Origin: a virus
Taxonomy: Duplodnaviria; Heunggongvirae; Uroviricota; Caudoviricetes
IMG/VR virus record: IMGVR_UViG_2802429224_000006
Span: 1-20,498 of that record
Direction: 5' to 3' (one strand)
Length of the DNA stretch: 20,498 bases
The stretch's first letter is position 1. The number at the start of each line of letters is the position of its first letter. The position numbers were made by a program. This document shows, in pieces, positions 9,801-15,800 of the stretch.

Positions 9801-12800
9801 AGAGGCGCGTCAGATCGTGGCGGAAGAGCTGGTGGAGAAGGTGGTTAATGGCAGGGTGAAACTGCTGTGGGATAAAAAAGGGCGACGCAACGAAGCCCTC
9901 GACTGCCTGGTATATGCCTATGCTGCCCTGCGTATTTCAGTTCAGCGGTGGCAGCTGGATCTTGAAGCACTGGCCCGTGCCAGAAGAGATGAGCAGGACG
10001 ACGATGAGATGAGTCTGGAAGAAATCGCGGCTGCGCTGAGTGGAGGATAAAGAATGGTTTATACGCATGAAATGCTTTGTGATGCCCGCCGGGCATTACA
10101 TGAACTGATGATCGGACGTGCTGTGGTTTCCGTCAGTAAGGACGGGCGTCAGGTTCAGTATTCGCGGGCGACGATTGGTGAACTGCGTCAGTATATTGAA
10201 GAGCTGGAAAGTGCGCTGGGCGTATCCGGACGGCGTCGCGGCCCGGCAGGAGTGGGGCTGTGAACGGGGAACTGGTGGATCTTCACGGGCAGCCACTGCG
10301 GCAGAGTATGGGGTATTCCGGAGGGGGTACCGGATTTGGCGGGCAGCTTGCGGAATGGCTGCCTGCACCGGAAAGTGCCGACGTGGCGCTCTTACCTTCC
10401 ATTCAGCTGGGTAACGCTCGTGCGGATGATCTGGTCCGCAATAACGGTATTGCCGCAAACGCCGTTGAAATTCATAAAGACCATATCGTCGGACACATGT
10501 TTCGTCTGAGTTACCGGCCCAACTGGCGCTGGCTGGGGATGTCGGAAGCCGATTCACATGCCTTTATTGAAGATGTGGAGGCGGCGTGGATGGAATTCTG
10601 CGATCCGGTGTTTGGTTCGATGGATGTGGAGGGGCGTCGCTCGTTTACCGAATTTATTCGTGAAGGGGTGGGCGTTCATACATTTAACGGTGAAATTTTT
10701 GTCCAGCCCGTATGGGATACGGAATCCACGTCATTATTCCGGACGAAATTCAAAACCATCAGCCCGAAACGTGTCAGTACACCCGGTTATGGTACCGGCG
10801 ATCGTTTTATGCGTGCCGGGGTGGAAATCAACCGGTACGGAAAAGCACTGGCCTACCATGTTCAGGAAGATGACTGGCCCGGTTACGGTGTCAGCAACTG
10901 GACGCGGATTGCGGCGACGCTGCCCTCCGGGCGACCGGGAATGATCCATGTGTTTCAGCCGCAGGAGGACGGGCAGACGCGCGGGGCCAACCAGTTTTAT
11001 TCTGTCATGGAGCGCCTCAAGATGCTCGACACACTGCAGGCCACGCAACTGCAGTCGGCGGTGGTGCGGGCGATGTATGCCGCGACGATTGAATCCACGC
11101 TGGATTCGGAAAAAGCATTTGAATATATCGCCGGGGTGGGAGATGGCGGTAAAAATCCCCTGAACACCATCATGAAAGGCTACGCGCGTTATTACGCCAC
11201 CAATACGGTAAAGCTGGGCGGGGTCCGTATTCCGCATCTTTATCCGGGGGATTCACTGAATCTGCAGACAGCGCAGAATGCAGATAATGGTTTCTCTGAA
11301 CTGGAAAAGGCGCTGTTACGTTACATCGCTGCCGGACTGGGGGTGTCCTATGAACAGCTTTCCCGTGATTATTCACAGGTCAGTTATTCCAGTGCCAGGG
11401 CATCTGCTAATGAGTCGTGGCGGTATTTTATGGGCAAACGAAAATTTGTGGCCAGCCGGCTGGCATCACAGATGTTTGCCTGCTGGCTGGAGGAAGCTCT
11501 TATTCGCGGTGTGATCCGCCCGCCGAAATCCCGTTTTTCATTCTGGGAGGCCCGTTCCGGATGGTGTCGTGCCGAGTGGATTGGTGCCGGTCGCATGGCG
11601 ATTGATGGCCTTAAGGAAGTGCAGGAAGCGGTGATGCGTATTGAAGGTGGTTTAAGCACGTACGAGAAAGAGCTGGCCCTGATGGGCGATGACTATCAGG
11701 AGATTTTCCGCCAGCAACTGCGTGAAAGCCAGGAGCGACAGGCAGCGGGTCTTCCCCGCCCCATCTGGATAAAGGACACGTTTCAGCAGCAGATCCGACA
11801 GACAACGGGAGAAAAAGGCGATGCGTCGTAATTTATCGCATATTGCCGCCATGGCATTTAATGAGCCGCTTTTACTGGAACCCGCCTATGCGCGGGTTTT
11901 CTTTTGCGCGCTGGGTAAAGAGATGGGGGCCGGCAGCCTTGCCGTTCCTCAGCAGGCTGTTCAGCTTGATGCTGATGGTATGCAACTGGCTGTGACTGAC
12001 TATATGGCGGGCGGTCAGCGTCCGGCAAAGAGTTACCAGGTGAAGAATGGCATCGCCATTCTGCCGGTGAGCGGCACGCTGGTGCATAAACTGGGTACCC
12101 TGCGGCCTTACTCCGGCATGACTGGCTATGACGGCCTGACGGCCCGCCTTCAGATGGCGGTGAATGATCCGGATGTGCGTGGCATTTTGCTGGATATCGA
12201 CAGCCCGGGCGGTCAGGCTGCCGGGGCGTTTGACTGTGCTGACATGATTTACCGTCTGCGGGAACAGAAGCCCGTGTGGGCGCTGTGTAATGACATGGCC
12301 TGTTCAGCCGCCATGTTGCTGGCGGCAGCCTGTACCCGTCGGCTGGTCACGCAGACGGCAAAAATTGGTTCGATTGGCGTGATGATGGCGCACACCAGTT
12401 ACGAGAAACAACTGGCACAGGAAGGGGTGGACATCACGCTGATTTACTCCGGGCAGCACAAGGTTGACGGCAACAGTATTCAGGCATTGCCGGCAGGTGT
12501 GCGTGCAGATTTTCAGCGCCGTATTGATGAGGCCCGCCGGATGTTTGTCGACAAGGTGGCGCTTTATACGGGGCTGAGTTCAGAGGCGGTGATGAATACC
12601 GAGGCTGCCGTTTATGACGGTCAGGCAGGCATTGATGCAGGCCTGGCTGATCAACTGATTAATGCTGCAGATGCCGTTGAAGTGATGGTTTCTGCACTGA
12701 ATGACTCTGTTACGAAGGAGAATGCAATGACTGTTAAAAATCTCACCGTTGCTGAAGCGGTGGCCCAGGAAAATCAGCGCGTGATGGGGATCCTGAATTG

Positions 12801-15800
12801 TCAGGAGGCGAAAGGGCGCGAGCAACTGGCGCAAATGCTGGCAGGTCAACCTGGAATGACGGTTGAGCAGGCGAAAATGTTGCTGGCTGCTGCGCCGGTT
12901 GCCGGTACTGACAGCACGGGTGATCAGATTATGGCGCTGCCGGAAGCAAAGGGGCGTGAGCAACTGGCACAGATGCTGGCAGGTCAACCGGGGATGACGG
13001 TGGCGCAGGCGAAAGCGTTTCTGGCGGCAGCCCCTGCTGCCGGTGCTGCAGGCACAGGCGATCAGATTATGGCGTTACCAGAAGCAAAAGGGCGTGAACA
13101 ACTCGCGCAGGCGCTGGCTGAACAGCCGGGAATGACCGTTGACCAGGCCAAAACGTTACTGGCGGCGGCACCGGTTGCGGGTTCTGCAAGTGTCGGCGAG
13201 CAGATTATGGCGCTGCCGGAGGCGAAAGGGCGCGAACAACTTGCACAGGCACTGACAGAACAGCCAGGAATGACGGTGGCGCAGGCGAAAACGCTGCTGG
13301 CAGCCGCGCCGGCGGCATCGCAACCGTCACAGGAAACTCTTTTTGATCGCTTTATGGCACAGCATGCTGCCAGTGCGGTTTCCGGTGGCGGAACTGCCGG
13401 GCACGGAGAAGAAGATCTGCTGATGAGTATGCCGTAAGCGATATCCGGAATTCAGATAAATCAGGAGACTGAAAAATGATTAAAACCACCACGGAAAAGC
13501 GCGCGGATGTGCATATTTTTGCCGGAAGCGATCCGGCGCATACTGCAACCGCCACCAGTGGTATCAGTGCTGCCACGCCTGCACTGACGCCACTGATGCT
13601 GGATGACGCCACCGGCAAACTGGTGGCATGGGATGGTCAGAAAGCCGGAACGGCAGTGGGCGTGCTGGCTCTGGCGCTTGCCGGAACAGAACCCACACTG
13701 ACGTACTACAAAAGCGGTACGTTTGCCACTGAGTCGCTGGTCTGGCCTGACTCTGTGGATGCGGTGAAAAAAGCCAACGCATTTGTGGGAAGTGCCATCA
13801 GCCACGCCTGATGGTGAAGTGATTGACTGAAAAAACGGGTCGCGATGCGGCCCGTTTGTGTTTCTGAAGGAAAATAAATTATGGGGTTATTTACCACGCG
13901 TCAGTTACTCGGGTACACCGAGCAGAAAGTGAAATTTCGTGCGCTGTTTCTGGAGCTGTTCTTTCGTCGCACGATCACTTTCCATACTCAGGAAGTCATG
14001 CTGGATAAAATTACCGGCAAAACACCGGTTGCGGCGTATGTGTCTCCGGTGGTGTCAGGCAAAGTGCTGCGCAGCCGTGGTGGTGAAACCCGCGTGTTAC
14101 GTCCCGGTTATGTAAAACCCAAACACCGCTTTGATTATCAGCAGGCAGTGGAACGTCTTCCGGGAGAGGATCCGGCCCGTCTTAATGACCCGGCCTACCG
14201 CCGCCTGCGTATTCTGACGGACAACCTGAAGCAGGAAGAGCAGGCGATTGTGCAGGTGGAAGAAATGCAGGCGGTCAGTGCCGTTCTGCAGGGTAAGTAC
14301 ACCATGAGCGGGGAACAGTTTGAGACGGTGGAAGTGGATTTTGGGCGCTCTGCCACCAATAACATTACTCAGGCTGGCGGCAACAGATGGTCACAGCAGA
14401 ATGCTGACACCTTTGATCCAACGCACGATCTGGATGCGTACTGCGATTTTGCCTCCGGGACCATCAATATCGCGATTATGGATGGCACGGTCTGGCGTAT
14501 GCTGAATGGCTTTAAGCTTTTCCGTGAAAAACTGGATACCCGTCGTGGTTCAAAATCGGAACTGGAAACCGCGCTGAAAGACCTGGGCTCCGTAGTCTCT
14601 TTTAAGGGTTATTACGGTGATCTGGCTATTGTGGTGGCGAAAACCGCTTACGTCGATGAAAACGGGGATGAACAGCGTTATCTGCCGGAAGGCACACTGA
14701 TTCTGGGGAACACTCAGGCGGAAGGCGTCCGTTGTTATGGTGCCATTCAGGATAATCAGGCACTGAGTGAAGGGATCACCTCTGCGATTCGTTATCCGAA
14801 ACACTGGTTAGAGGTGGGGGACCCGGGGTGCGAATATACCATGACGCAGTCTGCGCCGTTGATGGTGCTGCCGGATCCGGATGCGTTTGTGGTGGTTCAG
14901 GTGAAATAAGACGGGGCGGGATATTCCCGCCTTTTTCTTTAGCGCACGGGAGAGATTTGATGACAAAAGAGCAGATGACTGAACGTTTGCAGGAACTGGC
15001 AGTGATTCTGGGGCGTGAAGCAGATATTTCAGGTTCAAAAGCCGATCTTGAGCAGCGCCTGGCGGAATGGGAAGAGGAGGCCGCCGGATTCGATGGGGAG
15101 GAGACAGGGAAGGAAGAGGTGGGCAACGATGCATCCGGCGACGGAATGCATTCTGAGCGGGGACTCGCCCGGGTGCGTATGCTGAAAACGGCGCATATGC
15201 CAGCCTGTGATGCTGTAACGGGAAAAATGTTGATGTTTGCCCGGGCCTCCAGTGTTGTGCTGGTTAATGAAGCCGCAGTTCCTGCGTTGCTGGCGGACGG
15301 TCTGGCAGAAAAAATCCGGGAGTGATGATGTTAGATAATCTGTTCGATCAGGCCATGAGTGATGCGGATGACATCATCCTGGATACGATGGGGACGGAAA
15401 TCAGCATATATCCGGGCGGCACGGAAAGAAGAATCCGTGCCGTTTTTGATGCCCCGGCAGAAAACACCGGGATGAACACTGGCAGCGGCGAAATTCGTAA
15501 TACTGCGCCAGTTTTATTTACCCGGAGCGCATGGGTTGCCGGACTGAAAAAATATGACAGGGTCATGATCCACGGTGAACCCTATCAGGTAGTCGATCCC
15601 GGCTGGGATGAGTCGGGTACTGCGGGGCATGGTGTGATTACCATTACTCTCGCGCGGGGAGAACCCGGAAGAAGTACGCCTGCCGCCCCTGTCAGACCGA
15701 GTAAACGTTATGGCAGTCAGAGAGCATGAACGAAGCAGTGCCCGGCAGCGACGGCTGGCACGAAACCTCGTCGTCGATATTGATGAAGATGAGGTGCTGA

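Follow-up and report, generated by a model that had tools for sequence, protein, structure and literature searches.

A lambda C/Nu3-type prohead protease gene with four tandem copies of a conserved scaffold module

The protease gene and its nested scaffold

The stretch of DNA analysed here (the window, 20,498 nucleotides) corresponds to positions 1 to 20,498 of the IMG/VR virus record IMGVR_UViG_2802429224_000006 (Duplodnaviria; Heunggongvirae; Uroviricota; Caudoviricetes). It contains a lambda-type head gene module, in which an open reading frame (ORF) of 538 amino acids (11821-13437) encodes a gpC-type prohead protease fused to a scaffold, as judged from the ORF list, Pfam and the alignment to lambda gpC. 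The 3' part of this ORF harbors a nested Nu3-like scaffold frame with four tandem copies of a 46-residue module. The portal, protease-scaffold, gpD-like and gpE-like genes and the repeat units are located on the plus strand.

The S49 (SppA/ClpP-like) peptidase domain (12256-12690) lies in the N-terminal two thirds of the 538-aa protein, where Pfam Peptidase_S49 (PF01343) matches amino acids 146-290 (1.7e-33; 116 bits, cut-off 24.9). In a global alignment the protein matches lambda gpC along its full length, and Ser162 (...NDMACSAA...; codon TCA, 12304-12306) pairs with Ser166 of lambda gpC (...NDMNCSAG...). Ser166 is reported to be the catalytic serine of lambda gpC (Medina et al. 2010), and Ser162 is the putative nucleophile here. 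The gene order portal - C/Nu3 - D - E is found in the window: the ORF is preceded by a lambda-family portal protein gene (10260-11831; Phage_portal_2, 2.5e-95) and followed by genes for a gpD-like head decoration protein (13476-13811; HDPD, 2e-23) and a gpE-like major capsid protein (13881-14909; Phage_cap_E, 1.4e-65), the latter presumably the protein with which the scaffold interacts. Terminase genes of the Nu1 and gpA types are located 5' of the portal gene, and FI- and FII-like genes 3' of the gpE-like gene. Furthermore, the C-terminal 236-aa region matches both phrog_53 ('head maturation protease', 1.5e-77) and phrog_8399 (Nu3-type 'head scaffolding protein', 1.1e-50), each in four stretches. 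By homology and gene order, the window gene is thus a protease-scaffold gene of the lambda C/Nu3 type. It is 99.9% identical to chromosomal prophage genes of several E. coli strains (99.9-100% for STEC309 and P393-F10), and its allele group is present in ~105 of 5426 complete E. coli genomes. The proteins are annotated there simply as 'S49 family peptidase', usually with no entry for the nested scaffold gene.

The nested frame starts in frame with the long ORF at ATG 12727 and ends with it at 13437 (236 aa); it is the positional homologue of phage 21 gene 6. A Shine-Dalgarno (SD) sequence, AAGGAG (12713-12718), lies 8 nt 5' of this start, and its calculated anti-SD duplex energy is -8.8 kcal/mol, vs -7.4 kcal/mol at the start of the long ORF. 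In nearly all listed alleles (the exception being L083), a purine-rich SD precedes the homologous Met at a constant distance, with the overlapping codons varying between alleles (KENAM, QENTM, QEETM, GGTM, GGNM). The phage 21 records (M81255, OL657228) show a ribosome-binding site (RBS) for gene 6 at the equivalent position. Besides being translated as the C-terminal part of the 538-aa protease, the region is therefore probably also expressed as a separate, more abundant 236-aa scaffold. The lambda Nu3 protein, counted from MTKETQ, has 131 aa, and so the difference in length noticed in the first-pass annotation of this DNA (236 aa vs 131 aa) was borne out.

The repeat array

The only repeat of long period that Tandem Repeats Finder detected in the window spans 12804-13312 (138-bp period, 3.7 copies, 78% matches, score 543). 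The units, of 138 bp or 46 aa, begin at 12805, 12943, 13081 and 13219, as the first-pass annotation had claimed, and are in frame with the 538-aa ORF. That annotation had counted about 3.6 repeats. The tandem 46-residue unit was correct, but moving the register by ten codons, to let every unit open with a short N-terminal helix, yields an array of four complete structural units (12775-13326); a hidden Markov model (HMM) of the unit gives four domains accordingly. Self-alignment had been set beforehand as the test for a repeat going beyond Ala-rich low-complexity sequence. In-frame identity was 0.729 at lag 138 and 0.692 at lag 276, compared with a mean of 0.312 (sd 0.027) at the other in-frame lags, and the highest identity obtained over all lags in 2000 codon shuffles was 0.433. 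As the identity at lag 138 exceeds every codon shuffle, the array is not Ala-rich low complexity.

Unit 1 (12775-12912; QRVMGILNCQEAKGREQLAQMLAGQPGMTVEQAKMLLAAAPVAGTD) is, according to the unit HMM and pairwise identities, the orthologue of the 'Tri1 box' of phage 21 and of the single lambda unit; its protein identity is 81% to Tri1, 83% to unit 1 of a Trabulsiella prophage and 64% to lambda. It is followed by unit 2 (12913-13050), unit 3 (13051-13188) and unit 4 (13189-13326), all recognized by the unit HMM. In the global alignment, the lambda unit falls on unit 4, which continues into a tail instead of a linker. This single-copy C-terminal tail (13327-13434; SQETLFDRFMAQH...EEDLLMSMP) is alignable with the homologous tails of lambda and phage 21 and is kept in all two-, three-, four- and five-unit variants.

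Across lineages, the unit positions I6, E11, A12, G14, E16, A19, L37 and P41 are invariant, and R15, L22, A23, M28, A33, A39 and A40 nearly so, which points to a hydrophobic hairpin core together with a conserved polar EAxGRE patch. The predicted helices of each module are arranged around an invariant motif, EAxGRE...PGMTV...LAAAP. This module constitutes the core that is conserved throughout the Nu3 family.

Age of the array and selection on the units

Between units 2-4, 21-26 of the 30-39 nucleotide differences are at third codon positions. With the Nei-Gojobori method, the proportion of synonymous differences (pS) for these units is 0.56-0.72, the nonsynonymous distance (dN) 0.03-0.17 and the dN/dS ratio (omega) 0.02-0.13. 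Their protein sequences are 86-94% identical, and units 3 and 4 are 94% identical in protein despite a pS of 0.69-0.72. The earlier suggestions that the copies differ mostly by synonymous substitutions and that they are constrained at the protein level thus both agree with these figures.

In DNA, the units of the window share 64-78% identity, and the comparison with other alleles gave 71-80% for the paralogues within the window. Positional orthologues in other alleles are more similar to each other: the identity is 86-91% for unit 1 of the window and unit 1 of the alleles L021 and L025, 90% for unit 2 and its counterpart in L021, and 88% for unit 3 and that of L025, which fits the age of the array. 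For calibration, we used the protease domain and the capsid gene. Here, alleles of the four-unit clade differ from the window with a pS of 0.21-0.45, and phage 21 and Gifsy-1 with a pS of 0.58-0.66. As the paralogues differ with a pS of 0.53-0.72, vs 0.21-0.45 between the clade alleles, the units are older than the four-unit clade, with a synonymous divergence roughly equal to that of the phage 21 split, an age estimate that is bounded by synonymous saturation and by the low number of codons. Taken together, the bias to third positions and the low omega indicate an ancient array in this allele, which purifying selection at the protein level has preserved.

Copy number among relatives

The number of units was surveyed in IMG/VR, in a profile scan of representative proteins and in E. 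coli genomes. The unit profile matched 1530 clusters among 1.84 billion representative proteins at E <= 1e-3. The best 150 of these 1530 clusters, a ranking that favours multi-copy proteins, mostly had one matched stretch and none had more than four. One unit is found in lambda, N15, phi80 and HK225-type proteins, as had been expected for lambda from the first look at the sequence; two units in free-standing Bradyrhizobium proteins and some proteobacterial S49 proteases; three units in phage 21, in Gifsy-1 STM2605 and other Salmonella prophage proteases, and in a Trabulsiella prophage. The expansion relative to lambda proposed in the first-pass annotation is therefore real, although that annotation had missed its precedents, i.e., the three units of phage 21 gene 6 and of Gifsy-1.

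Within the allele group of the window, 30 of the 33 IMG/VR contigs have four units, one (L036) has five, and two (L037 and L040) have two. In L036, three of the five units are 100% identical in DNA; the first and last units of L036 are 100% identical to those of L037, and the protein flanks of the two are identical as well. When complete E. coli genomes were queried with the flanking sequences, a span of four units was found in most records and a span of five units in E. coli STEC005, STEC316, STEC719, STEC308 and STEC307. The array of four units is present in ~100 complete E. coli genomes in addition to the 30 IMG/VR contigs. On the STEC005 chromosome (L089, 547-2301), the protein has 584 aa and five units; its units 2 and 3 share 96% DNA identity. 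All gains and losses of units are confined to the interior of the array, and the gpE-like capsid proteins encoded beside two-, four- or five-unit scaffolds are 96-98% identical to that of the window.

From these allele comparisons, recombination between the repeats adds units to sister alleles and removes units from them. The assertion that the duplication is old and not due to slippage hence applies to the window allele but not to the family as a whole, in which five-unit gains and two-unit losses are recent. The series of one to five units in relatives means that expansion of the module is known and recurrent in this family; four units are close to the top of the observed range and not a new kind of feature.

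Two more distant proteins with two copies of the module were noted. P0172 (469 aa), a distant S49 prohead protease, has two units split by a proline-rich PTPPTPPTPP linker, so that the module was duplicated independently in a second lineage. In Bradyrhizobium (GCA_040548125.1; L090, 5001-5594), a free-standing 197-aa protein with two copies is encoded on a small integrase-bearing island and is followed directly by an ORF of 297 aa that carries no annotation and by a tape-measure-like gene. No S49 protease was found in this locus of ~10.6 kb. The 297-aa ORF had no PHROG match and no similarity to the gpE-like capsid protein, and the locus is therefore uninformative on the partner of the module.

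Predicted structure of the scaffold

The 236-aa product was modelled with AlphaFold2 using 46 homologues (mean predicted local distance difference test score, pLDDT, 69.5; predicted template modelling score, pTM, 0.28). The model has a leader helix (residues 8-23), after which the same pattern occurs four times: a short helix and then two further helices separated by a loop (GQPGM). A tail helix is predicted at residues 202-214. The pLDDT of the units is mostly 70-87, with unit 2 being weaker (about 62-66), and that of the linkers between them is about 40-67, with two linkers below 50. A single unit modelled alone (pLDDT 65) forms helices at residues 4-7, 10-23 and 30-39. The scaffold is thus predicted to resemble beads on a string, with helical modules joined by flexible Ala/Gly/Thr linkers.

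Comparison with the coat-binding element of P22-type scaffolds was possible only at the level of the helix-loop-helix of the unit (pLDDT 65): there was no scaffold structure among the PDB matches, and the fold is too small to be diagnostic. A sequence profile search of the PDB gave as its sole match a designed 'CAP repeat' protein with a helix-turn-helix (HTH)-like LAxxLGxSVxxxK pattern; this match sums weak repeats and is uninformative. A DNA-binding identity of the helix-hairpin-helix or HTH kind, to which weak Pfam matches (T2SSK, Bac_DNA_binding, DUF732) might have pointed, was rejected because no single stretch was significant. Neither a structure of Nu3 nor a mapped binding site was found in PDB, fold and literature searches.

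Possible role of the module

For lambda, yeast two-hybrid interactions of Nu3 with C, with E and with Nu3 itself have been reported, portal incorporation is reported to require Nu3, and C is believed to degrade Nu3 ahead of packaging (PMC3224144). In the interpretation that we favour, each module would be an independent interaction unit by which the scaffold, together with the protease, is retained in the assembling shell, candidate partners being the gpE-like capsid protein, the portal and other scaffold chains. The chain of four modules would correspond to a covalent oligomer of the single-module Nu3 of lambda and provide multivalent attachment inside the shell; the fused protease would later degrade the chain and let the scaffold leave the prohead. 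The copy number would alter the valency or reach of the scaffold, with two to five units being tolerated with essentially the same capsid protein. Taken as a whole, i.e., as a nested, repeated and selected scaffold domain of interaction modules whose number varies, we regard this interpretation as reasonably probable.

Several points weigh against it. Translation from 12727 is deduced from the nucleotide sequence, the partners named for the module are candidates, and the fold searches gave generic helical-hairpin matches only. The dN/dS values come from 37-46 codons per comparison, with synonymous sites near saturation. The allele is absent from the cultured phages of the phage collection, in which phage 21 was the best match (64% cover, 74% identity), which leaves the viability of prophages with two to five units presumptive. 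Finally, by analogy with the scaffolds of herpesvirus and P22, the single-copy C-terminal tail could itself be the capsid-binding element.

This last point leads to the main rival explanation, in which the units are spacers or self-association elements that determine how long the scaffold core is, how far it reaches or how it oligomerizes, and the tail (LFDRFM...DLLMSMP) binds the capsid protein. In herpesvirus and P22 it is the extreme C-terminus of the scaffold that binds the capsid protein, and a similar arrangement may be considered here, as the tail is conserved from lambda to the window prophage and is single-copy in all variants with one to five units, with units gained and lost solely within the array. 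In addition, self-interaction of Nu3 is reported (PMC3224144). Nevertheless, polar residues that are invariant in distant lineages (E11, G14 and E16; R15 nearly so) and an omega of 0.02-0.13 are unexpected for a mere spacer, and we consider this explanation unlikely, though it is the most serious of the alternatives. The second rival sees the units as cleavage modules: with an S49 protease site in each unit or linker, the scaffold would be cut to peptides of ~46 aa, small enough to exit the prohead, and extra units would mean more scaffold mass. The unit junctions are indeed strongly conserved (GDQIMALPEAKGRE in units 2-4), and a degradation of Nu3 by lambda C is assumed anyway (PMC3224144). 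However, the most conserved positions are in the predicted helices and not in the flexible linkers, and we hold this explanation to be improbable.

Two further possibilities concern the DNA itself or its translation. The repeat could be a DNA or RNA element (an array of binding sites, a regulatory RNA, a recombination hotspot), or the result of recent slippage or of misassembly, the repetition in the protein being a side effect. The recent unit duplications in sister alleles, with 96-100% DNA identity, mean that the DNA is recombinogenic. For the window allele, however, this explanation is effectively refuted by the codon-position pattern (its units have diverged in DNA mainly at third positions, and units 2-4 remain 86-94% identical in protein), by the lack of Rfam family matches in the region and of family matches for its minus-strand ORFs, by promoter-like and terminator-like sites not exceeding shuffle expectation, and by the occurrence of the four-unit array in many independent assemblies. 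The other possibility is a ladder of nested scaffolds, with Met codons at the unit junctions (12931 and 13069) starting products of three and two units. GGTGATC (12919-12925) and GGCGATC (13057-13063) precede these codons, and their anti-SD energies (-13.3 and -11.1 kcal/mol) are stronger than that at the 12727 start. Yet the arrangement is not conserved: the Met is replaced by Ile or Leu in many alleles (e.g., L036 and Gifsy-1), and the Gly-Asp-Gln codons become Gly-Glu-Gln in some, where pairing is weak (-3.9 kcal/mol). The SD-like junction sequences are probably a by-product of the Gly-Asp-Gln codons, and we rejected the ladder as very improbable.

A more far-reaching version of the interaction-module interpretation can be imagined, in which the tandem modules form a covalent multivalent cross-linker of capsid subunits and the copy-number polymorphism (2-5 units beside a nearly identical capsid protein) acts as an evolvable dial on the nucleation, fidelity or size of the procapsid. 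We consider it doubtful and rather improbable. If it were true, the dial might be driven by competition with satellites or with co-resident prophages sharing the head module, and the array would be a natural series for testing scaffold valency in capsid assembly.

The shell contacts of lambda-type scaffolding proteins are still poorly defined. The alleles described here form a natural series in which the most conserved Nu3 module occurs 1, 2, 3, 4 or 5 times, and some of these alleles are paired with an almost identical capsid protein. This series could be used, e.g., in lambda/21 hybrids, to address valency, protease loading, portal incorporation and capsid fidelity.

Other features of the window

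Outside the protease-scaffold gene, the very start of the window consists of a perfect simple-sequence repeat, (CGACCAG)x17 (1-119). A second perfect repeat, (GCGGACTC)x~10 (2701-2779), is located inside an HsdS-like ORF (2229-3368) that is preceded by a gene for an HsdM-like N6 methylase (529-2169). Some annotations of related E. coli genomes (about 89.6% identity) split hsdS into two pieces. From its sequence, this looks like a type I restriction-modification system that is phase-variable through repeat slippage. Between the restriction-modification and the phage late genes lie the neighbouring genes for tRNA-Thr(tgt) and tRNA-Gly(tcc) (3722-3875).

The ORF 6472-7275, just 5' of the Nu1/gpA terminase genes, contains a full-length K88-type fimbrial subunit domain (Fimbrial_K88, 2.3e-46), an unusual neighbour of a phage packaging module. 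An 11-bp GC-rich hairpin (13833-13857) between the gpD-like and gpE-like genes is terminator-like but has no clean T-run. A Baseplate_J-type protein is encoded at 17968-18882, 3' of the lambda-type head and head-tail joining genes, suggesting a mosaic prophage that combines a lambda-like head module with a baseplate of the contractile-tail type.

Comparison with known systems

The closest known system is phage 21, which shares with the window the portal, an S49 protease with a nested in-frame scaffold and its own RBS, the decoration protein and the capsid protein. The protease domains of the two are 75% and the capsid proteins 84% identical, and the tails are homologous. In the head operon record of phage 21 (M81255), gene 6 has repeat regions named 'Tri1 box', 'Tri box' and 'Tri3 box', with the remark 'function unknown; putative'. 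Once translated, these boxes are the same module as that of the window, with three domains found by the unit HMM vs four in the window. Note that the 'Tri boxes' are not mentioned in the papers searched; the precedent is the GenBank feature table of M81255. The three units of phage 21 are 53-58% identical to each other in amino acid sequence, in contrast to 86-94% for units 2-4 of the window.

A one-to-one orthology with Tri1, Tri2 and Tri3 was not found. Only unit 1 has a clear orthologue (81%), and this unit is orthologous across all lineages (72-83% in protein), whereas no orthologue of Tri2 exists among the window units (53-58% identity). Units 2-4 of the window resemble in their N-terminus the last-unit (Tri3) type of the three-unit phages and in their centre Tri1. 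Given the lack of a Tri2 orthologue and the Tri3-like or chimeric character of units 2-4, the window array did not arise by adding one unit to the triplet of phage 21 but is an independent and old amplification.

The gpC/gpNu3 pair of lambda likewise combines an S49 protease with a nested scaffold, and shares the context of the catalytic Ser as well as the internal Met and SD at the equivalent site. The core of the lambda unit (EAHGREEQARVLAETPGMTVKTARRILAAAP) and the C-terminal tail are homologous to those of the window. Lambda differs in having one unit after a non-homologous leader of ~57 aa, whereas the window scaffold has a leader of ~16 aa and four units. Gifsy-1 STM2605 and the Salmonella and Trabulsiella proteases have three-unit arrays, whose units 1 and 2 are orthologous to those of phage 21 (72-78%). 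These Gifsy-1-type proteases differ from the window protein in their three units, another set of linkers and an extended C-terminus.

Nested in-frame genes for a protease-scaffold and a scaffold are also known from herpesviruses (UL26/UL26.5), and the P22 scaffold gp8 has a small helix-loop-helix element that binds the capsid protein. Both are analogues and not homologues of the window system, and PDB profile and fold searches revealed no sequence or detectable fold relation of the unit to these scaffolds. Furthermore, each of them possesses one capsid-binding element and not a tandem array. Since the repeat feature had already been annotated in phage 21, what is new here is a set of four units that were amplified independently and are polymorphic in copy number.

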